From Ginglymostoma cirratum (lineage: Eukaryota), in contig JAHRHZ010000274.1 in NCBI GenBank assembly GCA_024137785.1, forward strand, positions 18,452,813 through 18,516,812: 64,000 nucleotides of DNA, in the 5' to 3' direction. Under the pieces are notes generated by a model. The model ran no database searches. It was not told where the DNA came from and worked only from the letters and a program-made list of their open reading frames with translations. Within the stretch, counting starts at the first letter, position 1. Every line of letters begins with the position of its first letter. The translations under genes were made by a program, and so were the position numbers. Positions 2,077 through 62,745 of this stretch are shown here, piece by piece.

Positions 2077-2168
2077 CTGAAGAAGGGTCCCGACCTGAAA
2101 CATCAACTTTCCTGCTCCTCTGATGCTGCCTGACCTGCTGTGTTCCTCCAGCTCCACACTGTGTTGAC
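2077..2168 (+). mobile_element. Penelope-derived short element with hammerhead-like core
   Basis: CTGAAGA-A-GGGT(cccg)ACCT-GAAA-CATC at 2077-2104. Flanked by a perfect 13-bp direct repeat tatggtcacattt (2064-2076 / 2169-2181). Confidence 0.85.
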
Positions 2169-5100
2169 TATGGTCACATTTAGTCCCTAAGTAGCTTGGT
2201 GTTTTGTCTTCCTCCTTAACCCCAGCAATGCCAATCTATTTGAAAACCCAGACAGAAAAAGATTATTTGACAGCAGAGATGTCACACCCAGGCTTGATCC
2301 TGCATTGATTTGACAGATATGCATGCACATTTCCTGGAAGGGGAAGTGGATTATGAGCTCTGGCTAATGTTTCCCTGGCTAATCCAGGGGTACTGAGGCC
2401 AAAGACAAAGTGTGCGTTGTCCCCTACTAATGTACTAACTGAGAACAGATCAGACCTTATGCTTTATAATTACAGATCATTATTAGCCAGGGTTGTTTAG
2501 TTACATAAACTGTATTGGGATCCCGAGATTAGTGCATTATCCTTGGTCCAAAGTAATCTCCTTCATCTAAAATATGATCAATAGGATCAATGTGAGCTCT
2601 TCTCTATAATTCAGAAAGGATAAATCATTCAGCCCTCTTCTAAGAGAAGCAAGTCACTACTATAATTACGTTCCTCAAAAGGGGAACCTTCTACTCTACT
2701 CCAACAAGCCTGGCTTGGAATACATCCCATCAAACTTTTATATTCTCGTAAAGTGGCAACTGAAAGGTGTAGGCAAAGCTGTGCCACATTCCTGACCTCC
2801 AGTAGAGAAAGACACTTCCCAATCTACCCCTGACTGAAACTATTAATGACTTATCACTGTTCCTTCATATGATAAGGCTTCTCTTTGAGAAATCTTAGAT
2901 GGAACACCCAATCTTCCAGCTTCAACAAGCGAATCGGCCATGGTTATGGTGCTAACATCTAACCATGAAAATCTTTGTAATTTCAAGTGAAAACAATCTC
3001 CAGATTGGAGGTTTTGAGAGATCTTGGGGTAAGAACTAGCCAACCCTTTAATGTGAAAAAGATCGAACTAAGACCTACTTTTATCCCGTGTAAGTCAAAC
3101 TATATCTGAAAGACAATTAAAAGCTATGCAAAGATATAGCTACTACTATCTCTATGCAAAGATATTGACGTGAATGAAGAAATTCAGCTGCAGATAGCAA
3201 CGATCAAAGAGAGTTAAGAGCAATTCAATGCAAAATAAAAAGGCACATTTGACGAAAAAGCACATTCTAAAGTGCAGTTCCTAATTTCTAATACAGTTGA
3301 TATTTTACACTTTGTAATATCCTGTACAAGTTACGGTACAGTTTGTAATCCTGTTGTCACGAAATAGGGCGTTCACCCACATTCACTCTCGCGTACTAGA
3401 GCAGATGCTGGAAAAGCATTGAGTCCAGTATGCTGGTGACTCGCAAGAAGGTGGTTAAATAGAGTATATTGGTAAACAGTTACTTGACAATCTGAGTCCT
3501 TATTTACAGTGAAATAAAATGGATGACGAGATTTGTTAGAGTGCGGCTTAGCGTTGGCCTGGTTAAAGCCTGCCAAGTGAAAACGATTAAACAAAATCTT
3601 CCCGGTCGCTGTGTAATGAATGCTGGAGGACTAAGTGAAATGAGTCTGTTTACACTCCATGCAGGTCGCAGCGGACAGCATCAGACTGCCTTGGAAGGTG
3701 CTCTTAATTGCACAATTTGACAGTCTTGCCAAGTTGGAACACAAAGAGGTGACGCAGAGTGTCAAGCCGGTGCAGTAGGGGGAGCTGTTGTGACACTGAG
3801 ATAGAAATATAGAGCTGGAGCAGGGAGAGGGATAGTTATTGAACAATGTACAGTAATTGGGAACCTGAAGATGCCTGATACCACTTCAAGGGGCAAACAT
3901 TCCATTTCCCAGTACTGTCGTCTACATTTTGTCTTGGAAAACAAAACTTTTCTAAAATTAAATAATTAATTGATCAACATTATATGTTTTTCCATATCAA
4001 AAACTCTTTAAATATACAAGGAATGTGACTTTCATTGTTTTAAAATGACCGAGACACGTTACCATCTAATTTTTACGATTTGTTTACCAATTTAAGCAGC
4101 AATTACTGTGGAATGTGTAAAGATATGTTGAATTAAACATTCTGGAAATTGATTTTGAATCACGCCGTGTTTCCATATCAATGTCATTGTGAACGGAACA
4201 GAATAACAGCAGTGTTATAACCTTGCACGTTTTATATCGTTTTGTACTGATAAAGATTAAAATCATTCAAACAGATTTAATCGAAACCAAAGACCCAATG
4301 TCTATAATAAATATCGAAATAATTTCAGCATTTCTTCAGCAGTTTAAGTCATGCGTGCCCCTAAGAAAATCAAGTTCTTATCTGATACCATTCGTGCTAA
4401 GGATTAATTCAATTTATCTTTCTGAAGGTTAGAATTGAAATCGAATGTTGATAATCGGAATCTTACTGTCACTGAGTAAGGATTTCACAAAACGTTCGCT
4501 GCCTACATTCGCAATCTCTCAATCCGAAAAGTTAAGAAAGAAAGAAATGAAAAGATTGATGAAACCTCAGACACGTTTGCTGTGGATTCGCGTTTTACTG
4601 AGAGTCTTTGGTTGAGACTCCTCAAGAAAAGAACGAACGAAATTTACTTTCTAAAAACCAAATGAGTTGTTTTGGGATATCGGCGAATTCTAACCAGAAG
4701 CCGCGACAGAAATTATAGAGTGAGGGATTCGTTCGGGGGTCCTGTTGAAGATTTAAATGTTAACTTTTTTTTGTTATCAGTTCGATCTGAACATACACAA
4801 TCTGTACGTGTCAATTCGCTGAATACTTGTAGAAATATAAGAAAGAATAACATACCTCAAAATATTATGGGCAATACCGAAAGGTGCGCCGAATATTGCG
4901 TTTGGTATTTAGTCAATTATTGTTTTGAGGTAAATTTTGTACAGATTTCCTAAAGAGAGATGACGCCACTTCTTTAATTAAACTGGGGTGAGATCGCTGG
5001 GTCCACTAACCCCGCCCCCACCCCTCCCCGACCTTCCCTCTCGCCATCTGGAAATGCACTGACACTTCATTTTTTTAAATTGTGAAATTCGAAAGCCAAG

Positions 5101-7279
5101 TTTAACTCAAGACTACATTTTCATTCTTAAAACCACATGTCTCTCTACAAAAGCTATCTAATAAATAAAATTTCACAGAACAACTAGTCCAAAGGAGGCG
5201 AAGAAGGTTACCGTCTCTTTCGCACGCGTCTAAACATTGAAGGAGACTTTCACCTGGAATCAGTCTGCCCTGACTTTAAAAGCAATGTCAGTTTTCTACT
5301 GCCAATCCGCCCATTGGTCCAACTTCAAGACAAGGGAATTGATTGAAGTAAAACTAAAAACTAACATTCAATTCTGATATCTGCACAATGGGTTTTTTTT
5401 GAATGTTTAACCACAGACAGGTCTACAAACAAAAACACGCGGAAATGGCCTCAAGCTTTGGGGGTTGTAATTACTAATCGATTTCAATTGTAGTGCTCCC
5501 CTTTCTAACCACAGTAATTGGTCGCTGCTCTCTGGAATTTCAGATTCTGCCTCCTATCCTTAACACAATCTGTTGGAATATCAAATATCTCATCTGGAAG
5601 TACAGTAGGAGAACCGACTAATTTTGATGGAAACTGCAAGATTGTTTCGTTGCTGCAAAGATGCTGGTTTCTTTGCAGCCGAAATGTGCTGGAGTATTTT
5701 GAATATGCAATTATTACCGACCTGCTGTCCTTGTGTGAACGGCGCATGTGAACTGATTACAATCCAGAGATTTGGAGATTGAGGCATAGCTATGGTTATA
5801 CTCGCAGCAATCAGGGCTTTGGAAAATTAAAAATTAAAAGACAGTCAAGACACGAACAGTCAGCGCCGCTTAATAGAGACAATTCCTTTACATGAGACAT
5901 TTGGTTAGGCTCTAATTGATTGCCAGTGGATTTCGATCAAGCGTTTCCTAATATAGACGATATGATAAATGCTGGTGTCCCAGTTAACCAGTTTGGCTCA
6001 TGCCTCTAGAAGGGCGGGTTTGAGAAGTCTAGCGTGCGTAAGCTCGTCGGGACTGCCATGACATTCTCCTTTTAAACAGGGACAATTCAGAATTCTTGTT
6101 TCTTTAATTAAATTCTGACTTTTGGCATTCCGCTTGATACAATAATAGAGATTGCTAAAAGCAAGGCTCGGACCATACACAGCAACGCGCGAAGCTACTT
6201 ATTTGCCAGAACACCATTTTGTTGCAGGTGCCATCTTTTAAACAAACGCGTTATTTTAACATGTGGAAATGGAAGGATTCTGCTGTGGTTTTAGTGGATT
6301 AGATATTCCATCCTACAGCAGCAACTAGGCATTAATTAATGATGTTTAGCTTGAACATCTCTGAATAATGTCAAAATTTAATATCTATGCGTTGTAATGT
6401 TTGGGATGTAGAGCGTTCTGTGGGATTGCGGGATTACAATGTTATTTCGGGAATTCGAAATCCAGCCGTTGAATGTCATTTCATAAAATCGTACTTTATT
6501 GTCTTTACATGGTCGACCATAAAGAATCATATTTGAAATTCTGATGCTGCACTTTGCACGGATGGACAGGTGCGCTGTGAAAAGCAGCTGAGCAGAAAGT
6601 AGCAGCCACCTTGGGCAGCTTTAAAGGATTTGAGCTTTGCGGGAGCTGCAGGGACAATAATTTATGTACGTACACTTTCTGATTAATGTTGCTGAGCATT
6701 TTTAAGTGATGATCTTGAAAGGAAAATGTTGTCCTCAGTGTTTTAAGTTGCAAAGTGAAACATTGGCGAACGATATGATCAGGGTTCATGATTTTGTTTT
6801 TAAATTTCCTTTGCCATTCTACAGGCAGCCAGAAGTGTACTGATGATCATATAAAAAGGCGAGATTCTCACTCAAGAGGCCGCTTAGCGCCATTACTAAT
6901 GAAAATAGAATGAATCTGAATAGTGCTAATATTATGGGGTCAGAAATCCAAACGGGAACGCGGTCAAAATGCATTTTAACGGCAGAAATCGCCCCCACTC
7001 GCTTCCATCAGGGTTAGCCAGTGGACTTGGATGATTGGCCATTTCGGAGCGCTGGGATGTTTTTTGCCTCAGTCCTTTCCTCTATAAGTTTGACCCACTG
7101 GTCTCTCACTTCGCCCCACTTCAGACCTTGTTATCTCAGATATATCTGAGCTTTTCACTTCACCTCGCCTACTACAACAAAGAAAACTCTCCCGGGCAAT
7201 GCTAATGATGTGATCTTTGATCACCTTCACACAGCTTTCTCGGTTCTGGTTAACAAAACGGGGTTAGGTGCATGAGTTT

Positions 7280-7423
7280 GTATCAGAGATAAAAGGTACT
7301 GCAGATGCTGGAGAATCCGAGATAAACCCTTCTGATGAAGGGTTTAGGCCCGAAACGTCAAGTTTTCCTGCTCCTATGATGCTGCTTGACCTGCTGTGTT
7401 CATCCAGCCCCATGCTTGTTATC
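7280..7423 (+). mobile_element. Penelope-derived short element with intact hammerhead-like core
   Basis: CTGATGA-A-GGGT(ttag)GCCC-GAAA-CGTC at 7332-7359. 15-bp direct repeat taggtgcatgagttt (7265-7279 / 7424-7438). Confidence 0.88.
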
Positions 7424-9258
7424 TAGGTGCATGAGTTTAATCGTTTCATCGCAGCTTAATGTAAAACACTCCGCTTTCCTATCTCTTGGAATTTGAGAGA
7501 AACACCTTCGGTTTTTATTACGAACGGTAGCCAATTAAATCTTGTTTCTTTCATATTTATAATGCGGGTTATGAATAACATTGCGATCATTCGACATTAT
7601 TCCATTATTATTGTTGGAATCACAATATTAAACCTTTAGGTGTTTTCACTTAAATGGAATTATGGTCATAATAGTTCCTGGGTGTTATCAGCAATCCAGT
7701 TTAGCTTCGTGTTACACAGATGTTATTATCTTTTAAACTATTGTTTAAACGCAAGATCCGATTTTTTATCCCAAATTTATGTCAAACAATATCAAAATAT
7801 GCAATGCCAATCCATCATATTTTGCACTGTGCGCAAATGCCGCGCTCTTAAACTAACAAACACAAAGTCTAACATGGTCGCAAGCCTGTTTAAATTCTAA
7901 ACTTGTCAAATCACGTATTTTGCTTTGTTAATGATTAAGTATTTGAGTATTATCAGCAGCAGCATTATAATTTAGTCACCTCCCCAAATAACTTAATCAC
8001 GAACTAATGTCCGCAGCAGTTCTACTGTTTCAAATCAAGAACAATCTTCACCAAAGTGACCTCTCGCAGTAAAACGGTCTCGCTTCTGTCTTTCACTTCT
8101 CCAATTTATTGCAAAAACAACGAATTCCCATTTCGGCTGCGGTACTGGAAAGATCAGAACGGCTGGCTACCATGTACAAAAGACTCTGGGCGGAAAACAA
8201 CACAGACTGCGTGGTTTGTGTGTGTGTGTATGTGTGTGTAAGCGCCTGTCTGTCTTCCTTGCTTTCTCTCACCCTCTGTGGTACACAGAATCCCTTCTGA
8301 AATGGTCATTTTATCTGTTCTCTTGTTGTTACTCTTTAACTTTCGTTCCGGACCAACCCGACTTCCAACAGACTGCCTCCGAATTCAACAACGAGATAAA
8401 AACGAGATAAGAAGGACTGGCAGCAGCGACCTTTGTAACTAATTCCAAGGCTCCCTCAGCAGCAGCCTGATAAGAGGCGAACGAACCTCAGTCATTCATT
8501 GAGAATTTCAATACCTTTTCCTTCAAGCAAGCTACATCTAGCAACCCTCCCGCTCAGGGCCTGGTCAGAATACACTCTACTTTTTGTTTGGTTTTACCAG
8601 AAGCAGCTCGATCTAATTGCACCATTGCAATTCTGAATGATATCTAACGAAAAAAAAACCCCGGATAATTGACAAAGCATCCCGCGAAACCTTAAGCGGC
8701 GCCTAAAATGTAAAAGAAAATTATTTCAGTCGATTCAAAGTTAGAAAGTGATTCACAATGTGTGGGAGATCGATATGCAAAGTAGATGTTTCTCAGAGAT
8801 ATGCAAATTCCTTTATTTATATCGTTTAAATGGTCAGGACTGCAGCTTTATAGTTTTATTTTGTTAGATTTCGCTTTCCGAAAGAAACCGTTGTATTTTG
8901 GAGGTGTTTTAGCTGATTCTATCACCCCATCCTGTTACAAATGGCAGTTAGGTTGCCAAAACACATTGATTTCCCCTCTTTTTAAATACAGCTGGAACTT
9001 CGTCAATCGTAAGAGAGCAATCAAACAAAAATCTTCCTTTTTTGCTGATTTTTTTTGCTGTAAGCGTTGTTGTGGCAACCGAAACTCAACTGGGACGCTT
9101 TGGCCCTTTGGCGGAACTATCCATCTGGCAGCTTCTACGGAAATGCTTCATGGCCCGTTTTCTCAATGTGTAGTGCGGCCTATTTTCAGTTTAACCAAAG
9201 CTGTGGTTGCCGGCATTACTTCAACTGGCCGTCCAGTTTCGGCGTTCCCCAGCCCACG

Positions 9259-13364: not shown

Positions 13365-13403
13365 AAACACACACACACGCACACACACACACACACACAC
13401 ACA
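13365..13403. repeat. (CA)n microsatellite
   Basis: Directly visible. Confidence 0.9.
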
Positions 13404-13662
13404 ATGTCAAACACCGAGACAAAGAAATACAAAGCGATAAATAAAAGAATGGGAAATATTACTGTACGAAGATGGTGAAGCACGCTTTGAATAACCGCTT
13501 TCCGTTTAAATGAAGGGAAATCATTCAGCAACCCGCCCGAAGTTTTCAGTATCTGTTATGGTTAACTTTGCATTATGAATAGATTTGTATATTACATTTT
13601 TTTTTGAAAAAAGCGGCACGTGTAAAAAAGAGCACTGAATCTCGGTGCATTCTCCTTCCTAC

Positions 13663-14698
13663 CTGCAAGCCTTAGAGCTGACATCCTTTGGAATTCCGGC
13701 TCCTGAAGCCACTTCCACATCCTCCTGAATGTCTCCCGGCCGGATTTGAGCTTGCTCCAGGGTTTGGGGTTCCTCAGCAGGTCCGAGAGGGTCCCTTGTG
13801 ACCTGCACAGGATGCGCTGGGCGAAAATGGCCTGCGGGATGCTGTAGCGCTTCAGCTCGGCGGTGATCCGCTGGGCCACTTCCTTGGTGTTGATCTCCTC
13901 GACCTGGTTGGAGCCGCCGCTTTGCGAGGCGGACACCGACGGCTGGCGGTCGCGCTCGGAGGAGAGCAGGGAGCCGTTGGCCTGGCCGTGGTGGTGACCG
14001 TGATGGTGCATGCCGTTGAGATGGGCCATCATGCCGGCTCCGGGAGCCGCCAGTCCCCGGGCCAGGTGCTCTTCTCCCCGGGACAGCATGGCAGCGTGGG
14101 ACTCGAACCCGCTGGGGGACAGGATCTTCTCGTTGGCCATGTGCCCGCCGTAAGGGGTGAGGGGCTGCTGAGAGTTGTGCAAAGTGCCCAGTCCGTTGGA
14201 GAGAGGGGATAGCGGTTGCCCCATGCTCGCCATGTCCTTGTGGTAGGGGCTGTAGAGATTGCCCATGGAAGGTAACCCCCTCTCGTCCCTCATGAGGGTG
14301 AAGCTGCCGCTGACATTGCCGGGCAGCCTCTGGTGTGGGGGGTGATGGTGATGGTGGTGGTGATGGTGGTGAGGGTGAGGGTGGTGGAATTTCTCAGACA
14401 CGGTGGAGATGGGCGGCAGGTGCTGCAGAGGGGTCAGCGTGGTGTAGGTACTGCTCAAACTCATCCCGGGCGGACTCTCACACGACATGCTCATGGCCGG
14501 GTGCAGGGGGCCTGACAGGCTCGGATCCGACCGGTACTCTCCCCCTTCCAGGATAGAAGCCATGCTGGACACCATGGCAGGCCGGCCGTGAGGCGCCAGG
14601 CTCCGGTGAGACGCCTGGCGATTGTGGGAACTGTTCATCAGGTCGCTGGCTTGGCTGGCGCCGTGGATATTCCCGAGGTTTTCCATTGTAAGCTCCAT
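13663..14698 (-). CDS. ONECUT3: ONECUT3-like transcription factor, coding exon 1 (N-terminus, TP box, poly-His, CUT domain)
   Basis: Translation MELTMENLG...TYTTLTPLQHLPP...HHHHHHHHHH...GSFTLMRDER...EEINTKEVAQRITAELKRYSIPQAIFAQRILCRSQGTLSDLLRNPKPWSKLKSGRETFRRMWKWLQEPEFQRMSALRLA. ATG at 14698 in strong context (agcATGG). Exon ends CTT GCA G|GTAGGA, a phase-1 donor at 13662, the usual ONECUT intron position. MEL start, LQHLPP and RITAE..QRILCRS fit paralog 3 as I recall it; ONECUT1/2 have QRVLCRS. Confidence 0.93.
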
Positions 14699-14886
14699 GC
14701 TCGCTGGGTTGGAGAGAGAGGTGAGGAAAAAGGAGGCATCAATCCCTAGCCATCCGCTCGGTCGAGCTCTGTCTGTGTATGTGTGTGGGTGTGTGTAGGT
14801 GTGTGTGTGTGTGTGTGTGGGAGGGGGTGGGGGGGATGTAGCGATCAGTGCTGCTGCTGTTGCTCTCTCTCGGATCGTTTGTGTGC

Positions 14887-14922
<36 letters not shown>

Positions 14923-15200
14923 GACTGATGCGCTGCTCCCTGGGCTGCCGGTTTAACCGCTTGCAGATTGGGGCAGAGACAGAGGGAGACAGACTCTCAG
15001 TGCGCACACTCTCACAGCCGAGTTTGACGTCAGCACTCCCACATCTTATTACTGAATTTCCGGAGGGTTTCTTTTCCTCTGTTTCTTTCCACCCTCCCTC
15101 CCTCCCCCATCACTCCTGCCCAATGCATTCCCCATTCGAAAGCCGGAAAGTTTCAGGCCGAACAATGCACGAGTGCAATTAGCGAAGAATGAACCTCGCT
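14699..15200 (-). promoter_or_regulatory. Putative 5' UTR and proximal promoter of ONECUT3
   Basis: GC/CpG-rich sequence upstream of the ATG. Perfect CRE palindrome TGACGTCA 15025-15032, CCAAT 15120-15124, ETS-like CCGGAA ~15143. TSS not determinable. Confidence 0.55.
14771..14925. repeat. (GT)n, G-run, (GTCT)n and (CT)n microsatellites in the 5' leader
   Basis: Directly visible simple repeats. Confidence 0.9.
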
Positions 15201-15863
15201 ACAATCGCAGCCTCTCACTTCAACACTGACGGTTCAGCTTCACATCCCAGCCCCAGCACAGGCAGCTAGTATCCGGCTGCCTTGCACGCGTTATCTCACT
15301 GACAAGGCTTTCTTTCACTGCAGATAAGGAAGGTGTCACCTTCCAACACCCACAGGTCGAAATCTCGGGATCAGACACGACCCTCGAGGCCCATCTCAAA
15401 ACATGGAGGATCATTTTGTTCACTGGGACGGTTGCTTCAATGTTTTAGGCAGTTCAGACATCAATAGTCGTTGTCCGGGCAATTAAATTCCGTTCTTTAA
15501 AATGAGTAGACCTCTCAGGATCCAGTTTCACTGGATCACAGTCATAGAAAGTTTATGGCGGGGCTGAAAGAGGCCATTTGGCCCATCAGGGTCGGCGCAG
15601 GGCCTGAGACAGTCACCCGAATCCAACTTCCCCATTTTCAGGGCCGAGACTTTGAGGGTCAAAATTGTGACAGTTGACTTTTTTTTGATATGGAACAAGT
15701 TTGACACTTCCACCAATGTTTCCGTTCATAACATACACTACAATATTTTGAATCTTTGCAACAGTGTAAAATTCAGAGCGACACATTTTGAGTTGCGGTG
15801 TCTTAAAGGAGACAGGCTTTTAGGCCTGAAAGACACTTCTGGACGAGTTGACACATTTTACAA

Positions 15864-15990
15864 TAAAACAACTGTGGATGCTGTAAATCTGAGACAAGAA
15901 CCGAAATTGCTGGAGAAACTCAGCAGGTCTAGCAGCACCCGTTGAGAGAAATCAGAGTTTTTGTTTCGAGTCCACTGACCCTTCCTCAGA
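15864..15990 (-). mobile_element. Penelope-derived short element with hammerhead-like core, ~1.2 kb upstream of the ONECUT3 ATG
   Basis: Minus strand CTGAGGA-A-GGGTC(agtg)GACTC-GAAAC at 15989-15963. 13-bp direct repeat acacattttacaa (15851-15863 / 15991-16003). Confidence 0.85.
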
Positions 15991-16505
15991 ACACATTTTA
16001 CAAAGTGCCCTGCCTGTGTTTGGGAAGAATTGTCCTTCATTTCAGCTTTTACACTTTCCTCAAATCTTCAGCCGAGAGATACCAGTGCGGTTACTTGGTG
16101 TACAGTGGTCGTGATCTGAAGACACCTCGATTGTTTGTCAACACTCGGGGCTTTATTTGCTGAAACCCTGCCGCTATCCTGATCAATAGGTCCAATATGG
16201 AACACTCACAGCTGCTTTGCCACAGAAATGCAGACACGACGCGCACTCGAAATTGTCATCGAATTAGTTATGCCCTAACAGCGCTGGGAAACATTTCCAA
16301 AGCCCAAGTTGTCAGCTGCATTGGAGCAGTTCTGTTGAGAGAGATTGCGCTCGTTAGACTCGGCAGGTCTTCGGGTTCACCCGGGGACGCAGTCACACGG
16401 AAATAAACGATGCGCCTTGAGAAATTCACATCTGTTTGAACTCGGGAGGAAGTAAACACGGCGCTGAATTTGGAACCGGGTTTGGAGGGATAAAGGGCAG
16501 CATTT

Positions 16506-22500: not shown

Positions 22501-24611
22501 TGTAATGAGGACTAGAAGATTTGATTGATTAAATTATAAACGGATAGAGATGGTGGATCCTAACTGTAAAGCGGGACAGGATTTTTACTATGTTACTTGC
22601 AAGTAATCAAAGTCCAAACTTCTCAAAACATTTGTTTGTAACATTCAGCCTTACCTGTATATTTACAGAATACCCGTCGCGTGACTACGAGAGAGCATTC
22701 GTTTTAGTTTGGGCAATGACTATTTTAATGTAAGGAGGACATTAGAATATTTTTGTGAACATGACCTCCACAATTATGCTCTACAGTTGCTGGCGGCGCT
22801 GAAAGGCTACCTACACCTCCCTGTCTATCGAGTAGTTTTGGCTGGACAAAACGTAGTTTCTGCTTTTCAACTAAAATAAAAAACAAAACAGATTAAATGC
22901 AACCAGAGAGGTTTGCAGTTTTTTTTACATTGCAACCCAAATATGCAGCGAATGTACTTATTCGGCAGGATTTTAAATTTGGGGACCTGTTAAATCAACA
23001 TCTGTGAAAATGTTCAAGGACGCAGAGAAACTCTTGACCCGGGAACTGTAAAATTTATATAAAAATACATACTAACTGGAGAGAATGATTCACCGATCAA
23101 ACACGTCTAGGCCACTTTTACATGTGTAGGCACTTTTCCCCTCAAATGAAAGTATTAACACTGCCTGCAGCCTCGAATTTCACTGGCTTTGAATGAGGAA
23201 CATAACATTGGCCAAATAATATAAATCCCTATCGGGTTATAGTCCTGTTTACGCAGTGTCTATGCGAACATGGGTTTAAAAATTCAACGTCATTATTACT
23301 TTCTCTGCCCAAACGAAGGAGATTTTAACGGAGAACGATGTAGTCCCACAAGAATACTGCACCCTTCGCAACATAACTTCAAAGACGTGCAAAACTAATG
23401 AGAGATAAAATTTATCTGACCTCATCTACTTAGCAATTCTTTTAATAAATTATTAATAAAATAAACCCAAGGGGCGTGTTTAACTGATACTCTAACATCA
23501 AATTTTTGCAATATTCTTCAAATGGCGTTGCACATGTTTTCTTAACGAATGTCCATGTTTGTAAGACCGCGCTAGGGAAGGGACATAGACGAAACAGGAT
23601 ATTCGTTACAGTAAAAAAGTAGAGTTACAGGCAGAAAACTATAAGTTAAAAAAAGTCGATATAATGCAGAAATACAGTTATTGTTTAGCTTCTGCAATGC
23701 AATCGGCAAGACCTTTCAGAGGCTAATGGAGCTATTAACATTTTGTTTTTTTAAACCTATTTCTTCCCATTTTTAACTTCCTTGTGAAAATTAGCTTTCT
23801 CTTTGCAGGATTCTCACATTCGGAGAAGTTATTGAATTTCTTACATAACTGTGAAAGGCGAGTTGTTCTACTCTTTCATTCCACGTATTTAATCCCACTT
23901 CAATAGATGTCTGAAGGGAAAATGTGTTGTATTAATTAATAGACATGTAAAAACAGTGTCCAATTTTAATGGCCTAGCACTCGCAACTCTACTTCCTGAC
24001 GTAAACTTCAAGCTTCTTGACACACATGAAGAACCTTCGGGGGAAAAGAAGCTACTCTTGATTTCAACTCATTTTGAATTATTGATATTTGGAACAAAGT
24101 TTAATGTCAATTAATCAACTTTCACCGGCTACATTCCAGGAATATTCTCAAGATAACCCCAGCCGCTTTCTTTTACATTAACAAAAATCTGGAATATTAT
24201 TATGTAACGTAATCGTTAATTGTCTATGCTTTGGTAAAATGATTGAATCTATTGTACTAATACAAATGCAGTAAGATGTAACGCTTCCTATTGGCAAATA
24301 ATTGGTAAAATATGAACTATTTAATTAGTTTTGCAGTTACTGTCTCACATGTATCCTGTCCATAAACTGCGCCCATAAAATCCACCTGTTACATACTCAG
24401 TAGTGCGGGTCCTATCGGCAATTGAGAATTACGTTCAAGTAGAAATTTTGTTCCTGAAGCTTGACGCTGCGCTTCGAGCACTCCCGGATGAAAACGGTTT
24501 CATTAAACAGCGTGCCAGTGGTTCATGACAATCAACTGGGACTTTGCAACCTTCTGAGGCCATTCACAGTTCCGGGAGTAACAAGGAAAATTGGAACCGC
24601 AGATTACCAAT

Positions 24612-24704
24612 TTCTGATGAAGGGTTTAGGCCCGAAACGTCGAGTTTTCCTGCTCCTATGATGCTGCTTGACCTGCTGTGTTCATCCAGCCCCATGCTTG
24701 TAAT
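24612..24704 (+). mobile_element. Penelope-derived short element with intact hammerhead-like core
   Basis: CTGATGA-A-GGGT(ttag)GCCC-GAAA-CGTC at 24614-24641; almost identical to the copy at 7332-7423. Confidence 0.85.
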
Positions 24705-25739
24705 CCCCCCAACATCTTCGGCAATTGCGTCAAATATGATGGAATTCAAGGTCATATTTCAGTTATAAGTTTAACAGTCGTAACTATCACAACTATTACA
24801 ACCTGATAAATAAATGCACACAATAACTGATTTGCAAACTATCGTCAAATAAGTATAGTGAGAAAAGAGCGAGAGAGAAATGGATCAAACTGCCACTTAG
24901 AAATTAAAGAGTTTGGGGGTATGTGAGGAGTCAGAACAAATTTACCTGGGAAAAAGCAAGTGAAATGCATTCTACCATAAAGTTCTAGAGCTCCACAGAT
25001 GGCAATACCTGCTCTGGCAGACAGCGCAAAGCTGATTAAGGAGAAAGATGTGAACCATGTACTTTGCATTATGTGAATTTCATCTTTGCAAAGCTGCGCC
25101 CATTAGAATGAATGATTTCTTGTATTGTGTTCGGAAAACCTGCCTGAATATATTTTGCGATTTGGGCAACACGGAAAAAACCAGAAATCTGTGACTGGTC
25201 TCTTTTCATCAGACCCACCCAATCTTTACATTATCCAACGGCATTAAGATGGTGCTGCCGTTTGCAATTTATTGATTTTTTTTAAAGGGCCGGGGAAAAC
25301 GTTCGAAGATTTAGTTGGGAATGGTGCAAATACTGATGAATCCTCCCTAACTCTCATGTTCATATCAAGGACATTGTTGTATTTTACAGGAAGGCGGAGA
25401 AGAGGCGGAACCAGCTGCGTTGCTCTTGCCCGGGGCTGCATGCTCACGGGGGGCTGAATGGCTTCCATTTGTGTTGTAACTGCTCAATGAATCTAAGGAC
25501 TTATGTCCCGAGATGACTGCAGTGCAGCAATGAATGGCTCAGTTCTCCCCATGAATCTCTCTCGGTGCAAGTGGTAACTTTACAAATTGTGTATTTCACA
25601 ACTACGCAACTAACATCTTCAGGTCAACATGGACCAGTCGGGTGTGATTTTACACTTAGTACATTTCGAGAACGTGTAAACGCAGGCCATCGACATCCAA
25701 AAGGTCTCACCATGCAGCACTGCAACACACTCACATATG

Positions 25740-25903
25740 AAAACAAAATCCACACAGAACTGCTGGCGTTAGAAATCAGAAACAAAATCATAAATTGCTG
25801 GAAAAGAAATACAGTTCTGTGTCGAGAAAGCAAAGCTTTCGAGTCCAGTGATCCTTCTTCAGACCTGCTGCGTTCTTTTTCCTCCCAGCCATTTCTGTTT
25901 TTG
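25740..25903 (-). mobile_element. Rearranged Penelope-derived short element
   Basis: Minus strand CTGAAGA-A-GGATC(actg)GACTC-GAAA-GCTT at 25862-25833, with terminal-repeat fragments on both sides. Confidence 0.7.
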
Positions 25904-25934: not shown

Positions 25935-26205
25935 TACAGTGTGGACCATTCGACCCGCTGAGCTTCCCTACAGACCCACCCCTCTACATTTGCCATGGCT
26001 AAACCACCTAATCTGCACATCCCTGGACTTTATGGGCAATTTAGCATGGCCAATCCGCCTAACCTGCATATCTTTGTGACCGTGGGAGGACAGACACGAG
26101 GAGAATGTGCAAACTCCACACAGACAGTCGCCCGAGGGTGGAATCGAACCTGAGTCCCTGTTGCTGTGAGGGAGCAGTGTTAACCACTGAGCCACCGTGC
26201 CGCCC
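25935..26205 (-). mobile_element. tRNA-derived SINE (HE1/V-SINE-like)
   Basis: Minus-strand head gggcggcacggtggctcagtggttaacac...caggttcgattcc (A/B boxes), then tgtgtggagtttgcacattctc and gattggccatgctaaattgccc core. Confidence 0.85.
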
Positions 26206-27309
26206 TAAAAAAAACAGAATTAAGTCAATCCCGCCAATTCGATCATCGCCACAATGTATGCAAGTGATTTAGAAATTCTTTCCAGCAGATGAAAGTCACT
26301 GTCCTTCCCCGAATGATTCTACTGGTTTGCAACAGGTCTAGAGATCTAAGGGAACAGTTTTAAGACAGCAGGGCTGATGACATGACAGATTATAGGCAGG
26401 TGACGTGGCGGGGATTTCTCCCCGTTTCAAGACAGTTGCAAAATTAGTAACCTGATTTTTCAAAGTGCTCAAGTGGTACACACACCAAACTCAAATGTGA
26501 CACCAGAACTCAGCACTTTGTGTTTTTATTTCAGATTTCCAGTATTCGCATTTTGTTGTTTTCTTCTTCTTGTAAACCAAGGCAGTTATAAAAATATTCA
26601 CCTCGGTCAAACGTATCACACTTGTTAGAGAGAAAAGAAAACAATATTTTCATGATGAAATGACCAGGTAAATTCAGATAATACCGGAGCAATAATTGGC
26701 GCTATTAAGACTGGATTCATGCAGTCTAACTATAGATTTTGGATAACAGAAGGCAAACTGCAGTAGATGGAAGATTTTTGTCTTGGCTGTGTGCATATCT
26801 GCAGAATTTCAGGCTGCTCTAACATTGATAAGGAACACTGTCAATCAGGGAGTCTACGTCTCTCTGGCTGTTACAGGGGGACGGATGTGACTCCTGGTAA
26901 CTTTCGAATCACAGGACAGCAAATGGAAATCTAGCCCGCTGTCGAACCAAGTTGTACAAAAAGGGCCGGTTGTCACTGTCAGGCAAGTTTTCCATCTGAT
27001 CTAAATGTAATTGTTTAGAGAATAAGGTGTCTTTCTTCTCTAATCTGGATATCTAATTAGGCAGTGACAACCCTGAGCATGCCAGTAACTGGATTTATAC
27101 AGTGAGCTAGCTTTCTTCACAGCATCCTAGCCAGGCAGGAAACCTGCAGTGTCAACCTGCTTCCACTGACGAGATAGTTCAGGTGTATTTTTCTGTGCTC
27201 GCTGGCGCGCTACCCATGATCTCATTGTAGGCATACAAATCAAAGAAAGTCGTTGCATTTGTATAGCTCCGTTTAGAACCATAGGTTCAATGAGCTTTAC
27301 AATGCAAGG

Positions 27310-29027: not shown

Positions 29028-29374
29028 AATTCATAGAATCGCTACCATGTGGAAGCAGGCTGTTTAGTTCATTGAATCCACACTGACCCTCCAAAGAGCC
29101 TCCCACCCACCAACCTGTTTCCTGTAAGGCTGCATTTCCTATTCTTAATCATTGTAGCCTGCACACCCTTGGACACTATGGACAATTTAGCATGGCCAAT
29201 CCACCTAACCTGCACATCTTTGGACTGTGGAAGGAAACCACAGCACTTGGGTGAAACCCATGCAGACATGGGGAGAATGTACAAACTCCACACAGACGAT
29301 TACCCAATGCTTGAACTGAACTTGGGTCCCTGGTGCTGGGAGGCAACATTGCTAACCATTGAGCCACCATGCCA
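29028..29374 (-). mobile_element. tRNA-derived SINE (HE1/V-SINE-like)
   Basis: Same head and core as 25935-26205, with a CR1-like tail (catagaatc). Confidence 0.85.
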
Positions 29375-31750: not shown

Positions 31751-32365
31751 CTGGTTTAGATACATAAAATTTGCATATTAAAAAATCTACGCTATACAAG
31801 TGGCCAATGTTATAGATTGGGCAAGTATTCTGGGAAAGTAATTTGCGTACAGTAATTTGAATAATTTGCTTACTTCAGAAGAAAATATTTTTTTCTTTCC
31901 TGGAGAGGAATAAGAATAATATGAGTTTTATAAAAATGTAGCAAGTATAATCTATATAAGTTTTGTATTTGTTGAATCAATGACACTCAGCTAATGTGGA
32001 ATTTCATCCTAGATATATAAACATAGAACTCTCTATCTTGGAATTAGAATTTAATGTTTCTGAAAATTCCTGTAGTGGCTGTTTCGAGTAAGGATTCTTA
32101 GGACTCTTTTTAAAAATGAACAATAAGCTGCAGGTAAAGTCATGCTTTGATAGGTGTTTGTGTTATGTTGAATACACCAGTGTAAAATTTCTTTAGCTAC
32201 GCTAAATTAAGAAAGAATATTATCTGAACACTTTTCAAAAAATGCATCAGCTGTTCTTCCTTTATGTTGTAAGTTAAAAACTGTGTTAACATTTCTTAAA
32301 TGTTACTGTAAAGAAATGTAAACAAGAACAGAAGCATTAGGAAGTGAACTGTATTTGACACATTT

Positions 32366-32461
32366 CTGAAGAAGGGTCTAGGCCCGAAACGTCAGCCTTC
32401 CTGCTCCTCTGATACTGCTTGGCCTGCTCTGTTCATCCAGCTCTACACTTGTTATCTCTTA
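32366..32461 (+). mobile_element. Penelope-derived short element with intact hammerhead-like core
   Basis: CTGAAGA-A-GGGT(ctag)GCCC-GAAA-CGTC at 32366-32393. 8-bp direct repeat acacattt (32358-32365 / 32462-32469). Confidence 0.85.
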
Positions 32462-32521
32462 ACACATTTGTGATTTGCTTTGTCCTTGTTATCTCTTAAC
32501 ACATTTGTGATTTGCTTTGTC
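32448..32521. repeat. Perfect 37-bp tandem duplication
   Basis: cttgttatctcttaacacatttgtgatttgctttgtc x2 (32448-32484, 32485-32521). Confidence 0.95.
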
Positions 32522-40700: not shown

Positions 40701-41537
40701 TATAGGTCAGGTCTCAATCAACGACAAGATAGAGTACAAGAAAGAGATTGAGTACTCAGTGGCATGGTGTAAAGACAACAATCTCTCCCTCAACATCAGC
40801 AAAACGAAGAAGTTGGTCATTGACTTTAGGAAGCAGAGTGCAGGGCACATCCCTATCTGCATCAATGGTGCTGAGGTGGAGATGGTCTAGAGTGTCAAGT
40901 TCCTGGGAGTGATGATCACTAACAATCTGTCCTGGGCCACCAATGTCATTGCAATGGTTAAGAAAACATAACAACGCCTCTACTTCCTCAGGAAGCTAAG
41001 GAAATTCAGCATGTCCACAAAGGCTCTTACCAATTTTTATTGATACATCATAGACAGCACCCTATCTGGATGCATCACAGTGTGGTCTGGCAACTGGACT
41101 TTTCAAGACCGCAAGAAACTACAGAGAGTTGTGAACACAGCCCAGTCAACTATGTAAACCAGCCTTCCATCATTGACTCCATCTATACTTCCTGCTGCCT
41201 CAGGAAAGCAACCAACATAATCACAGACTCGTCCTACTCCAGTTATTCTGTCATCCTCTTCCATTGGGCAGAAGATATAAAGTTTGTATAGACATACAAA
41301 CAGATTCAAGAACATGTTCTTCCCCATTGTTATCGGAATCTTGAATGGACCTCTCAAATGTTAATGTTGATCCATCTCTCTGCACCTTCCCTGCAGCCAT
41401 TACAATCTATTCTGCATTCTGTTCTGCTACCCTGATGCACTTTGTATTGTGCCATCTGCCTGTACAGCACACAAAACAACACATTGCACTGTATCTCAGT
41501 TCATACGACAACAATAAATCAAATCAAACCAAATCAC
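37714..41537 (+). mobile_element. Near full-length decayed Rex1/Babar-type LINE
   Basis: 5' aagacggtgcc and YNHSALLDL; APE motifs FIETWL, GGMVCFLINTSWC, VYIxP, DFNQ; RT motifs VFTDIFNLSL, MKCFERL, PQGCILSPLLYSLYT, NNLSLNISKTKKLVIDFRK; 3' tail aataaatcaaatcaaaccaaatca. Many stops and frameshifts. Confidence 0.85.
38267..38836 (+). mobile_element. 5'-truncated CR1 LINE inserted inside the Rex1 element
   Basis: LVRPLLEYCVQFWSPFYRKDIIKLER; 3' tail ctgtttccatgctgtatgactctgtgactct. Confidence 0.85.
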
Positions 41538-41738: not shown

Positions 41739-41739
41739 G

Positions 41740-41960
41740 AAGGAAGCAGAAATTGCTGGGAGAAACCCAACAGGTCTGGCAGCACCCTTGGAGACAGAAA
41801 TAGAGTTAATGTTTCAAGTCTGATATAAACATTTTTCAGAATTGAAAGGAGATGGAACAAAATGATTTTTATGCTGTTGACAGAGGTCGAGGAGGAGCAA
41901 GTGGAACAGACTGTGAGGATGCCCAGAGCAACAGACAAAAGAGATGCTAATGGTGGTATA
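41740..41960 (-). mobile_element. Penelope-like 3' terminal fragment with decayed hammerhead core
   Basis: gcagaaattgctgggagaaacccaacaggtctggcagcac...agagttaatgtttcaagtc...ttcagaa, homologous to the reverse complement of ~62480-62745. Confidence 0.7.
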
Positions 41961-42329: not shown

Positions 42330-43480
42330 CTGGAATTTTTAGGCTCTTGTAGTAGTACAGGAAAGCATTATAAGCCTTACAAACCTTGACCCATTCTGGC
42401 CAGGGGCTGGCAAAGGACTCTTCCTTGCACTAAACACCACCACTCGCACAGCCATCATAAGCCATGCACCCTGATTATAGTGGCCTACTCCCACCATAGA
42501 TGCATTGGGGTTGCACCTCACCACAGCATACAGAAATGTTTCCAAAAGCTCACTTTGATACAATAATGTTGTATTAGTGTTTACATCATGGGTGTCATGG
42601 AAGGACAGTCAAAGTCACAATTAAGTGTTGTTCTGTATTAATTTGAGTGAGCTCCTTCCTGGTGTTGTTCATTTCATCCTCTGGAGAAGTGGCATTATGA
42701 TCTTGCTTGTAAATGTGATATATTGGAGTGTAAGGTCAACATGAACACTTTACTGTAAGAAAATGTGCTATCCAGGGGCAGACAGCAATGCTGAAGAATG
42801 AATGGCATTATTGGAAGCAGATCAGCATGCATTATCCCCTAGCCTTACATATGTGAATTACCATAGCTGAGGGATTGGATCCTGCCTGATGCTGTGGATA
42901 CTCTTCCATTTCTTACTTGGCTTTTACAATACCTTCATCAAATGTTGCTTGCGATGCCTTTTCTTCCTCTGGGCTTATGTCATCACCCCTCTGCATGAAG
43001 GGTCTAGGCCCGAAACGTCAAGCTTTCCTGCTCCGATGATGCTGCTTGGCCTGCTGTGTTCATCCAGCTCCACACCTTGTTATCTTGCATGATGAACTTG
43101 TTGAGTGCACATGATACCACCACTACTTGTGATACTCTCTCTGGATCATAGTGCAGAGCACTTTCAGAGCAGCTAAGATAACAGAGGTGCATCTTCAGAA
43201 GATCAGTCTTTTACTCTGCGGTGACCATTTGTGCAGTCTATTGCAGAGAGCTGACCATGGCTGTGAAGTCAATTTGCCCTTTCAGTCTATGTCCTCATTT
43301 GTCCTGAATCTTATGTACTCTCTACCTCCCTTGTACATTCAAGAACTCCTTAATGTAACACCGAAAGGCTGCTTAGCAGATACCATAAATATCAGCTGAA
43401 ACCCCTCGGAAGAGCCAGATGCATAGAAATTCCAAGCTGATGGGATGCCCAACACATTCCCATGGACACACATAATTCTA
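42330..43480 (-). mobile_element. PIF/Harbinger transposase relic
   Basis: Minus-strand segments read NFYASGS..ADIYGI..IKE (~43340-43440) and WLM....AYNA..TTRA (~42340-42470). Confidence 0.6.
42991..43085 (+). mobile_element. Penelope-derived short element with hammerhead-like core
   Basis: (ctgc)ATGA-A-GGGT(ctag)GCCC-GAAA-CGTC. 7-bp direct repeat tgcatga (42992-42998 / 43086-43092). Confidence 0.85.
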
Positions 43481-44659: not shown

Positions 44660-44996
44660 ATATCATAGAATTCCTACAGTGTGGGAAGAGGCCATTCATT
44701 TCATTGAGTCCACACCAACCCTCTGAAGAGCATTCCACCCAGTCCCAACCCAACACCCTATCCCCATAACCCCACATATTATCATGGCTAATCCACTCCC
44801 GGGACAATTTAGCATGTCCAATCCACCTCATTTGCACATCGTTGGACTGTGGGAGGAAACCAGAGCACCTGGAGGAAACCCATGCAGACATGGTGAGAAA
44901 GTGCAAACTCCACATAGACAGTCGCCTGAGGCTGGAATCAACCTGGGTCCTTGGCACTGTGAGGTAGCAGTGCTAACCACTGAACCACCTTGCCGC
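44660..44996 (-). mobile_element. tRNA-derived SINE (HE1/V-SINE-like)
   Basis: Same head, core and tail as 25935-26205 and 29028-29374. Confidence 0.85.
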
Positions 44997-45934: not shown

Positions 45935-46066
45935 TTTCTGAGAAATGGTCACTAGACCTGAAACGTTAATTCTGATTTCTCTCCACAGATGCTGCCAAGC
46001 CTGCTGAGCTTTTCCAGCAATTTCTGTTTTTGTTTCTAATTTCCAGCATCTTTCAGGTTTTATTTA
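45935..46066 (+). mobile_element. Penelope-derived short element with hammerhead-like core
   Basis: CTGAGAA-A-TGGTC(acta)GACCT-GAAA-CGTT at 45938-45967. 12-bp direct repeat with one mismatch, gtagaaccattg / gtagagccattg (45923-45934 / 46067-46078). Confidence 0.82.
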
Positions 46067-50292: not shown

Positions 50293-50690
50293 TGATTTGA
50301 TTTGATTTGATTTATTATTGTCACTTGTACTTAAGTACAGTGAAAAGTTTTGTTATGCGTGCAGTACAGGCAGATCATAACATGCAAAGACCATAGGATG
50401 ATTGAGCAAAGCAGGGAATACAAAGTTATGGTTGCAAAGAAGGTGTACAAAAAGCAAGATCAACATTAGATTTGAAATTTGAGAGGTCCATTCAGAAGTC
50501 TAATAACAGTGAAGACAAAGCTGTTCTTGAATTTGTCAGCGCATATGTTTATAATTTTGTATATTCTGCCTGACGGAAGAGTTTGGAATCGATTATAACC
50601 AGGGTGGGAAGGATCTTTGATGTTGGCTGCCTTTCGGAGGCATCAAAAAGTGCAGATGGAGTCAATGGATGGAAGGTTGGCTTGCAGGAT
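50293..50690 (-). mobile_element. Rex1-type LINE 3' end
   Basis: (GATTT)n tail and tttattattgtcac...gtacaggcagat match the reverse complement of the 3' end at ~41150-41537. Confidence 0.75.
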
Positions 50691-51102: not shown

Positions 51103-51368
51103 CCTCTGATGCTGCCTGGCCTACTGTGTTCCTCCAGCTCCACACTGTGTTTCCTCATACCCAGATGAATGCCCACAATCCTGACAGTAGAACTATCACT
51201 ATCCGACCTACCTTCCCCAGTCCCACCCCTCCTCTCTCTATTTATTTCCCAGATCCATTCTCCCTTCCTTATTTCTAAAGCAGGGCCCCGACCTGAAACA
51301 CCAACTTTCCTGCTCCTCTGGTGGTTCCTGGCCTGCTGTGTTCCTCCAGCTCTACACCGTGTTATCTG
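51103..51368 (+). mobile_element. Two Penelope-derived terminal-repeat fragments, the second with a decayed hammerhead core
   Basis: cctctgatgctgcctggcctactgtgttcctccagc (51103-51150); ctaaagcagggccccgacctgaaacacc...cctgctgtgttcctccagc (51275-51368). Confidence 0.75.
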
Positions 51369-60660: not shown

Positions 60661-61239
60661 TCTCTTCACTTTGGTAGCAAGTCTCTTTCCATAAAAGTCA
60701 TTAGCAAACCAGTTATCTTTTTAACCACAATCTGACAGTCCCAGCTACCTCCTTATTTCTAGATTCTGAAACAAATTTCCAATATTCCAACTGTCATGGA
60801 TCCCCTCTGGATTCAGGGCCTTCATTTTCTGAAGGTTCAGTCACATAACCATTATACTGCTGTGTCCAAGTTAAAGGAGGTTGACACATAAGAATAGAAT
60901 CTCATGCTGTATGTCTTCAATTCACTTTGCCAGGCTCTTTTGAGGCAGATCCCAGTAATTCAGCATATAACTTGGCTGTTTCCCAGCTTGTGACAAACTC
61001 AGCATCTCAACAAACTCACACGCTGTTGGTTCAGAAGCATGTGTCCCTGGATTGTGAATTGAGTTCCAGGTTTGTTTCTTGTTTCAACCAAATTTGTGTA
61101 CCGATAATAAGGTTTTCCACTTCTCACCTGGTCAGATGAAGACAGTTGAGGACAGAAATTCATTTTAGTTTGAAGCACAAGACAGACAGCATCAAATCAT
61201 CAGCTCACTTTATATTCTGCCAATTTTCTTTTCCATTGG

Positions 61240-62745
61240 AGTAAAAACCGGAAGAACTGTGGATGCTGTAAATCAGGAACAAAAACAGAAGTTGCTGGAA
61301 AAGCTCAGCAGGTCTGGCGGCATCTGTGGAAAAGAAAATCAGAGTTAACATTTCAGGTCTGGTGACCCTGGAAAAGTTTATCGATTTTGCTTCCAATTTC
61401 CACCCTGCCCTCACTTTCACCTGGTCTATCTCTGACTCCACCCTTCCCTTCGTCAACATCTCTGTTTCCATTTCTGGGGATAGACTGGCCATTAATATCC
61501 ATTACAAACCCACTGATTCCCACAGCTACCTTGGGCTATACATCCTCGACCCTGATTCCTGTAAAGACTCCATCCCATTCTGTCAGTTCCTCTGTCTCCG
61601 TCGTATATGTTCAGATGAGGCCAACTTCGACAAGGGAGCCTCCGAAATGTCCACCTTTTTCCTCAACCGAGGATTCCCCAGCACCGTTGTTGACAGGGCC
61701 CTCAACTGGGCCTGACCCTTCTCCCGCACTTCCACCCTCACCCCCTGTCTTCCCTCCTGCAACAGCAATAGGGTTTTCCTTGTCCTTATCTACCATCCCA
61801 CCAGCATCCACGTCCAGAAGATCATCAGATGCCATTTCCCCCACCTCCAGCGAGGTACCACGACTAGACACATATTCCCCTCCCCTCCCTTGTCCGCCTT
61901 CCGCAGGGACCGTTCCCTCCGGGACACGCTGGTCCACACTTCCTTCACCCCCAACAACAACCACGGCCCTACATCACCTTCCCCTGTAACCGGTGAAGGT
62001 ACAACACCTGCCCTTTTACCCCCTCCCTCCCCAGTACCCAAGGGCCAAACATACCTTCCAGGTGAAGCAACACTTCACCTGCACTTCCCAGAATCTAGTC
62101 TACTGCATTCGCTGCTCACAGTGTGGTCTTCTCTATGTTGGGGAAACAAAGCGTAGACTTGGTGACCGCTTCGCAGAACATCTACGTTCTGCTCGCAAAA
62201 AAGACCCTGAGCTGCCTGTTGCCTACTACTTCAACACAGCACCCTGTTCCCTGGCCTACATCTCTGTCTCTGGCTTGCTGTAGTGTTCTAGTGAAGCTCA
62301 ACTCAAGCTAAAGGAACAACATCTCATTTTCCGCTTGGGGATCCTGCAGCCCTCCAGACTCAGTATCAAGTTCAATAATTTTAGGGCCTAAACTTTCCCA
62401 TGTCCTAGCCCCCTAACCCAAAGACCAGGCCTAGTTATCATGTCGCCTGCCATTACACACCACCTATTGTTAGTCACTAACAATCCCCATTAACAACTAT
62501 TCACCCTCCTAGCCAGATCGTTGTCAACTCCTTTGTCTATCCAACTGCTCTTCTGTCTTTTTAGGCTGTATCCTATTGTTTACTCCCTGCCCCACTACCG
62601 TGACTATTTCCTGCATATAAACTGATGTTTTTCCAGCTACCATCAGTTCTGAGGAAGGGTCACCGGACCTGAGATGTTAACTTTGATTTTTTTCTTCCCA
62701 GATCTTGCCAGACCTGCTGAGCTTTTCCAGCAACTTCTGTTTTTG
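61240..62745 (+). mobile_element. 5'-truncated Penelope-like element (RT C-terminus plus GIY-YIG endonuclease) with inverted terminal repeat
   Basis: NFHPALTFT..LPF..HYKPTDSHSYL..SIPFCQFLCLRRICS..FLNRGFP; FTCTSQNLVYCIRCSQCGLLYVGETKRRLGDRFAEH. ~61276-61369 is the reverse complement of ~62656-62748. 14-bp direct repeat ttcttttccattgg (61226-61239 / 62746-62759). Stops and frameshifts present. Confidence 0.92.
62642..62687 (+). ncRNA. Type I minimal hammerhead ribozyme motif in the Penelope 3' terminal repeat (mutated copy)
   Basis: Stem I AUC-AGUU / AACU-uu-GAU; CUGAGGA-A; stem II GGGUC(ACCG)GACCU; GAgA-UGUU. GAAA is intact in the inverted copy at ~61352-61355. Confidence 0.65.

Follow-up and report, generated by a model that had tools for sequence, protein, structure and literature searches.

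Short hammerhead-bearing repeats in Ginglymostoma cirratum as terminal pieces of two families of Penelope-like elements

Copies of the repeat in a 64 kb window

A 64 kb stretch of the genome of the shark Ginglymostoma cirratum (GenBank assembly GCA_024137785.1, contig JAHRHZ010000274.1, positions 18,452,813 to 18,516,812 of the forward strand; all 64,000 nucleotides are referred to below as the window) contains short dispersed repeats that carry a predicted hammerhead ribozyme motif. When copies were delimited by BLAST with seeds derived from the window, 17 pieces of this repeat family were found, and the repeat families D3-D5, D10 and D13 and the inverted pairs I1, I2 and I4 of a window self-comparison all proved to be this repeat. 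Judged from the letters, homology among the copies is far above chance, and the case for a family rests on this homology rather than on a shared word, because the bare 7-mer CTGA.GA alone occurs 50 times across the window. The window repeats are real, yet they are no independent ribozyme family; the short copies are almost certainly terminal pieces of autonomous, endonuclease-bearing Penelope-like elements (PLEs) of two related families. They are listed here by position, where pLTR stands for the terminal module of the parent element and the basis of the call is given in brackets.

1076..1164, plus strand: old B-type unit, decayed, preceded by an inverted piece that resembles the tail
2074..2168, plus strand: subfamily A3 pLTR stub that begins at the hammerhead edge and has lost the ACGU palindrome (BLAST, motif); exact 13-bp target duplication, 2064-2076 / 2169-2181
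7280..7423, plus strand: subfamily A2 stub (7330-7423) with the whole motif, predicted cut after 7359, following an inverted tail piece (7280-~7325); exact 15-bp duplication, 7265-7279 / 7424-7438
15864..15992, minus strand: subfamily B stub with tail, UH lost (BLAST, motif); exact 13-bp duplication, 15851-15863 / 15991-16003
24611..24705, plus strand: subfamily A2 stub with the whole motif, predicted cut after 24641 (BLAST, motif); no clear target duplication found on comparing its flanks
25745..25903, minus strand: old B-type stub with an internal deletion and an approximate left edge (homology, alignment), including a partial opposite arm at 25857-25903 (plus strand); weak 9-bp duplication
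26511..26545, plus strand: B-type 3' fragment without the hammerhead (BLAST, motif)
32363..32458, plus strand: subfamily A1 stub with the whole core, just 2 stem I pairs, predicted cut after 32393 (BLAST, motif); 11-bp duplication with 1 mismatch, 32355 / 32459
41744..41821, minus strand: decayed B-type unit without the 5' half of the hammerhead (BLAST, motif)
42990..43085, plus strand: subfamily A2 stub whose CUGANGA box contains one inserted nucleotide (BLAST, motif)
45935..46066, plus strand: subfamily B stub with tail, G8 lost (BLAST, motif); 12-bp duplication with 1 mismatch, 45923 / 46067
51103..51367, plus strand: A3 fragment (51103-51157) plus a decayed A3 copy in which ~80 nt of the element's 3' untranslated region (UTR) survive
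61240..61369, minus strand: inverted, tailed B arm, the 5' counterpart of the long copy at 61368..62747 (inverted pair I2)
61368..62747, plus strand: 5'-truncated 1.4 kb subfamily B PLE (tblastn, Pfam)

The copy coordinates and stem II loops of a preliminary description agree with the sequence, and its division into two main subfamily groups, A and B, is upheld. Its copy list was incomplete, missing a copy at 61255-61369 (-) and the pieces at 51103 and 26511, and the copy at 62649, entered there as a small insert, is actually the 3' end of the 1.4 kb coding copy. The full motif that it ascribed to nine named copies (CUGANGA, an extra A, stem II, GAAA, CG, UH) is present in three of them (7332, 24614 and 32366) and broken in the other six: the 2077 copy reads GAAA-CA-UC and its palindrome is gone, UH is absent at 15989, the CUGANGA box at 42991 is interrupted by the inserted nucleotide (CUGCAUGA), G8 is absent at 45938, and the 62649 copy has GAGA-UG-UU in place of GAAA-CG-UH. 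The AAAGCUUU at 25832-25839, formerly read as a helix III palindrome, aligns as a 5-nt deletion after GAAA, and the palindrome there is therefore probably accidental.

The 1.4 kb copy is made up of a reverse transcriptase (RT) thumb remnant (61368-61946), a GIY-YIG remnant (62038-62385), a 3' UTR and a pLTR unit that starts at 62646. It matches the element protein at 54-57% identity (tblastn, E 2e-93) and the Pfam GIY-YIG model at 26 bits (cutoff 22.6), and an exact 14-bp duplication (61226-61239 / 62746-62759) encloses both this copy and its inverted arm. Exact target duplications of 13-15 bp were found at 4 of 12 window sites tested and duplications of 11-12 bp with one mismatch at 2; no clear duplication was found at the remaining six. 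At 32448-32521, a perfect 37-bp tandem duplication has copied the 32366 insert's 3' junction along with its target duplication.

The parent element and its hammerhead motif

Elsewhere in the genome, longer copies carry an open reading frame (ORF) with RT, CxxC and GIY-YIG upstream of the same unit, and GIY-YIG coding sequence and a pyrimidine-rich 3' UTR lie ahead of many A units; a GIY-YIG protein piece gave 121,037 first-look candidate matches. Among 20 loci picked for long open frames and then checked for RT and GIY-YIG, 13 contain a frame free of N in which RT (YxDD) and GIY-YIG motifs both occur, and in 12 of these 13 the unit follows on the same strand. These ORFs have 525-748 codons and stop some 190-280 nt before the unit. 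Four ORFs were scanned with Pfam, and RVT_1 and GIY-YIG were identified in each; the ORF of locus L113 lies above both curated cutoffs, and in the other three the RT falls below its cutoff. The 3' end of L113 is nearly identical to the window copies 7332 (unit 7330-7423) and 24614, and the subfamily B module ends a second PLE family with an ORF ~67% identical. At the protein level, the element ORF is most similar to sequences of whale shark (93%), zebra shark (88%) and a bamboo shark (79%). In L112 and L113 the linker between RT and endonuclease reads CNRRKCYTC (CX4CxxC). A CX2-5CxxC zinc-finger linker is described as a feature of Neptune that is shared with Nematis (PMC8557442); with the CX4CxxC form common to both, we infer the Neptune type for the shark element from its host.

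In a search with the start of the element body, at least 28 of 30 loci had the module's tail immediately ahead of the body. The module thus sits after the ORF and also before the body, and it is therefore the pLTR. It is 95-135 bp long and consists of the minimal type I hammerhead, a further ~65 nt and an optional tail of 33-35 nt. At the pLTR-body junction (L197, L202-L230), a short frame begins inside the unit, ~48 nt after C3 of CUGA, in frame with the main ORF, from which, in almost every one of the 30 loci, a single TGA at the end of the tail separates it. At one locus (L178, oriented 424-590), the body of a longer copy harbours a short pLTR of its own family, with a short duplication.

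Abundance was estimated from 132 stretches of 10 kb taken at round coordinates on large contigs, with 48 wholly N stretches excluded, which left 806,048 readable bases; the sampling was not strictly random, later stretches lying near earlier readable ones. These bases contain 251 units, or one per 3.2 kb, a density higher than the one per ~6 kb first proposed from the window. Scaled to a genome of 4.36 Gb this gives ~1.36 million units (bootstrap 1.18-1.55 million), so the family is indeed very large, although insertion events must be fewer than units because of paired arms. The PLE families cover at least 71,232 of the sampled bases (8.8%).

The sampled copies bear the hallmarks of PLE insertion: duplicated target sites, arms joined head to head, and tails. 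Among 129 rows, 18 show an exact flanking match of at least 12 nt (the mode is 14, and one row is a repeat), versus 0 of 387 shuffled pairs, and head-to-head pairs outnumber tail-to-tail pairs by 35 to 1 among the 251 units. The 3' ends of A units (n=151) cluster at +90..94 (41) and at or beyond +125 (63; the reference ends at +128), counting from C3 as 0, and the 33-35 nt between these two end points is the PLE tail. Only 1 of 220 units runs on into the element body. An inverted 5' arm, a 30-40 bp tail and a target duplication are all described for PLEs (PMC8557442, PMC3846280, PMC11167929).

The unit is, on its sequence, a predicted hammerhead, most genomic copies of which appear decayed. 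In the subfamily majorities the core (CUGANGA / GAAA / UH), the extra A, stem II and the palindromic 15.2-16.2 region are retained, and on these majorities the initial assignment to minimal type I hammerheads of the PLE kind, in which helix III is palindromic, stands as a prediction. With C3 as 0, the predicted cut falls between +27 and +28 in A and between +29 and +30 in B. Across 119 pattern-matching copies, the extra base before stem II is A in 117, and the loop is CG in 78 and decayed to CA/TG in 37. Of the 251 sampled units, 130 span the core, 62 keep core and stem II, and 48 have ACGU as well; at least 3 stem I pairs can form in 33 of these 48. Helix I of the PLE motif comprises 4-5 bp. 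In the shark units, stem I has 4 bp in B (AGUU/AACU), A4 (AGUC/GACU) and A2a (with one G-U) and is reduced in A1 and A3 to 2 pairs followed by a mismatch; in two A copies that were folded, its predicted pairing probability is at most 0.02.

The covariation check suggested at the outset lends the stems modest support only, RNAalifold reporting two-sided change at 1 of 8 pairs in 14 natural copies. An old B group shows a G-C to A-U change; among the 119 copies, the second stem II pair is G-C in 107 and A-U in 4, and another pair is U-A in 105 and C-G in 1. The Rfam hammerhead models, also proposed as a check, gave no match at E<=1 when run on the window. Folding of whole 136-nt units revealed no unusual stability (z-scores -1.2 to +1.6), and cofolding of two 44-mers gave a minimum without the helix III dimer. 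Standard RNA-seq, a read type that cannot show cleavage ends, gave no pile-up of molecule ends. For comparison, minimal hammerhead ribozymes (min-HHRs) are described as inactive as monomers and weak as dimers (PMC4209133), and the hammerhead motif of an anole element as cleaved solely with protein (PMC11167929).

The 5' edge of the short copies and its origin

We consider it very probable that the inserts are separately landed terminal modules of the two autonomous families, made by the element's RT and GIY-YIG endonuclease and not self-spreading. The preliminary description had taken them for tiny non-autonomous units spreading as such. This is not supported, as the same unit ends RT and GIY-YIG ORFs and starts full-length elements; nor are the short copies a family of their own, since they are no closer to one another than to long ones. 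Relatedness is equal for short versus long copies (A, 0.083 versus 0.085; B, 0.181 versus 0.179), and no diagnostic column separates short from long at p<0.002 (70 versus 74 A units; 40 versus 11 B).

When 5' junctions were scored in 223 units (28 that adjoin N or a locus end were excluded), a sharp edge became apparent just before the motif. Fifty-six junctions fall at -6..-2, 30 of them at -3; the remainder lie at -1..+60 (107), at -100..-7 (13), further upstream (40) or beyond +60 (7), and only 5 at +26..+31, around the cleavage site. The edge is present in both A (25/123) and B (31/100), despite their differing upstream sequences, and a simulation run through the identical aligner produced no such peak (14 true and 16 called, of 300). 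RNA reads and contigs of a second organism show a roughly fivefold drop in read depth at the same edge, and in full-length copies 6 of 18 scoreable 5' pLTRs begin at -6..-4. All eight reference copies have YYANWYY here with A at -4, which is the initiator consensus (PMC5287107), and base variation at the edge stays inside YYANWYY even where stem I thereby breaks. It is likely that the sharp edge marks the start of the copied RNA.

The base preceding this start may carry a trace of the cap. Fifty-nine solo copies begin at the edge, and in the 40 with a readable start motif the base at -5 is C (the templated base) in 18, G in 15, A in 4 and T in 3; the non-templated base is therefore G in 15 of 22 solo copies, and internal junctions have G in 14 of 62 non-C bases. 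In L1, capped full-length insertions are marked by an extra G (PMC11702581). The excess was not replicated in held-out loci (2/7; pooled 17/29, Fisher p 0.002), and because this set failed to confirm the extra G, we treat the cap signal as a hint only.

We propose that transcription would begin at the initiator-like site 4-5 nt before CUGA, so that the RNA would have a module at both ends. The enzyme would then nick the target and prime internally at one of two points of the tail, as the anole element does in vitro. Priming on the downstream module would give ordinary 5'-truncated copies, priming on the upstream module would run off the RNA 5' end after 95-135 nt and give the sharp short class, and priming from both nicks would give head-to-head pairs. 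The hammerhead would be carried along uncut, most genomic copies having decayed since. Internal priming, extension on both strands and uncut RNA as a substrate are all described for the anole element (PMC11167929). We regard the run-off step itself, that is, an RNA start before CUGA with run-off from the upstream module, as evenly balanced. The fuller reading, an integrating "strong-stop-like" PLE product formed when the RT is primed inside the 5' pLTR and reaches, by run-off, a capped end set by an initiator that overlaps stem I, is a tentative one to which we give somewhat less than an even chance.

Several observations, together with the unreplicated G excess, weigh against this proposal. 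YYANWYY is degenerate, with 2-6 further matches within 200 nt, and positions -4..-1 also form the 5' strand of stem I. The extra-G signal was defined after looking, allows for slippage on T runs and omits 19 of the 59 solo copies. Junctions are most frequent at -3 instead of -4, many copies have T at -4, and C at -5 is templated in 18 of 40. The RNA start was not observed, the RNA-seq being unstranded with 86-95% of reads continuing into flanking DNA (run X22 contributed 399 partial reads only, X10 and X12 none). The 107 junctions inside the unit are assignable to neither template, and with just 11 long copies the lineage test is weak for B. The T at -4 occurs in 12 of 25 short B copies with a start motif (for example, window 15992-15996, minus strand) and in none of the long B copies listed; it could be a non-templated addition, a misread cap-adjacent base or the mark of an unseen master.

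Two other origins of the edge were rejected. A splice-acceptor origin, for which a D. virilis intron offers a precedent (PMC4209133), would require an AG that B has at -4/-3 and A lacks, and no shared upstream exon was seen. Unrepresented upstream sequence causing the pile-up is contradicted by the flanks, 0 of 48 of which are at least 80% pyrimidine, and the flank similarities inspected (40 of 99 pairs) are inverted arms.

A real rival for the 5' peak, if an unlikely one, is processing at the DNA or structural level, whereby the GIY-YIG endonuclease trims at ATT/AGTT or the RT halts or changes template at the stem I base. The anole enzyme favours 5'-ATT-3' near the ORF-pLTR junction (PMC11167929), the shark edge is CATTT in A and CAGTT in B, the modal junction at -3 is compatible with a cut after A, and several junctions (2077, 32366) share microhomology with the target. 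A structural block, however, would be expected at the 3' side of the hammerhead, where only the five junctions noted above lie, and trimming does not predict a G before the start.

It is improbable that the short units propagate themselves as non-autonomous elements (SINE-like, in the manner of short interspersed elements, or monomeric retrozymes), with an internal promoter and RT-priming signal and copied in trans by the PLE enzyme. A start no further upstream than -10, seen in 174 of 223 units, would suit such units, as would the T at -4 that short B copies show and none of the long B copies listed does; internal priming requires no defined RNA 3' end (PMC11167929), and non-autonomous PLE derivatives have been described (PMC8557442; bioRxiv 10.64898/2026.07.22.740005). 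Against this, no short-only lineage was found in 146 A and 52 B units, and no head-to-tail arrays among the 251 units, in which 14 same-strand neighbours within 400 nt are irregularly spaced and often of mixed subfamilies.

A template defined by hammerhead self-cleavage and circularisation, as in non-LTR retrozymes, was proposed in PMC4209133 and shown for retrozymes in PMC7229834, and a core conserved across subfamilies with some compensatory change would fit it; we nevertheless find it very hard to credit here, as copies span the cut site with few junctions there, no tandem hammerhead array was found in the window or in the sample, stem I is predicted to pair so poorly in the two A copies folded, and the anole element needs no cleavage in vitro (PMC11167929). 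Least probable of all is an origin as solo pLTRs by recombination between the two pLTRs of full-length insertions: such a route has been suggested in rotifer, by recombination or deletion (PMC3846280), and full-length copies do begin at the same edge, but the truncation rate implies that only ~0.3% of long-class copies are full length, too few to supply the solos, a single sampled unit enters the body, edge-starting copies (56) match upstream-starting ones (53) in number, and the repeats are just 130 bp long.

Neighbouring features, related systems and meaning

The window holds several other features. A long open frame at 13592-15109 (minus strand) encodes a CUT domain (Pfam E 1.5e-33) and His runs, and resembles what we take to be exon 1 of a ONECUT-type gene. 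A weak match to the 5' half of U6 small nuclear RNA at 38319-38366 (plus strand; E 0.05, below the gathering score) may be an old pseudogene. Dispersed repeats unrelated to the hammerhead unit lie at 25984-26201, 29130-29373 and 44802-44937, and others at 41171-41536 and 50293-50667 and at 38735-38821 and 63914-64000; all are probably pieces of short or long interspersed elements. Within B units (for example, 45960-45995), GTTAAC, a pyrimidine run and CAG/ATG resemble a branch point and 3' splice site, and hundreds of thousands of copies could provide cryptic acceptors in introns; A units are without the AG.

The closest known motif is the min-HHR in the pLTRs of metazoan PLEs (Cervera and De la Pena 2014, PMC4209133), with which the shark unit shares CUGANGA, the extra base before stem II, a short helix I and the palindromic 15.2-16.2 region. 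As described there, the motifs are mostly single, come from truncated PLEs and include opposite-strand pairs close by. The counts given, obtained with a strict descriptor, run to thousands per genome (~4,000 in coelacanth, ~9,000 in Xenopus), in contrast to the ~1.36 million shark units, of which 48 of 251 sampled retain core, stem II and ACGU. The available text of that paper names no sharks and describes no 5'-edge pile-up.

The parent element resembles Neptune-type endonuclease-bearing (EN+) PLEs in its single ORF with RT plus a GIY-YIG domain at the C terminus, the CX4CxxC linker and a DKG motif (PMC8557442, PMC3846280), and its copies share with theirs 5' truncation, partial tandems, an inverted 5' arm, a 30-40 bp tail and target duplications. 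It differs in that target duplications centre on 14 bp, compared with 8-10 bp in the rotifer examples (PMC3846280), and in that most shark copies are module-sized, unlike those of the Neptune-type descriptions available. As in PAc (Poseidon of Anolis carolinensis; Frangieh et al. 2024, PMC11167929), the hammerhead lies at the pLTR-body junction, two internal RT start points define the tail and extension proceeds from both strands. PAc belongs to another clade, and its ORF starts within the hammerhead, whereas the shark short frame starts ~48 nt after C3 and stops at the tail end; no run-off class is reported in the accessible part of that study. Non-LTR retrozymes likewise have a type I hammerhead, a relation to PLEs, short non-coding units and a chondrichthyan example (PMC7229834; bioRxiv 10.64898/2026.07.22.740005). 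They are described as tandem repeats with canonical hammerheads and circular expression (PMC7229834), whereas the shark units are dispersed, single or head-to-head, and identical to coding PLE ends. In the literature searched, mostly outside subscription journals, we found no paper on shark PLE hammerheads or a run-off class.

The kind of repeat is thus ordinary, because each copy carries the element's already known minimal hammerhead motif, and hammerheads in truncated PLE ends were described in 2014 (PMC4209133). What the shark copies provide is a very large fossil record of PLE insertion, a process whose mechanism, like its use of the hammerhead, is still being worked out (PMC8557442, PMC11167929). 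In this record the cleavage site does not delimit the copies, and a single 5' edge recurs in many of them, a pattern that yields a cheap and direct prediction of where the RNA starts; hammerhead counts in shark genomes, in turn, would mostly count dead PLE stubs. If the strong-stop-like reading is true, some 300,000 shark insertions record a transcription start and uncut RNA is the template in vivo, and the hammerhead would serve to cut away a capped leader of ~32 nt instead of delimiting the copied unit.

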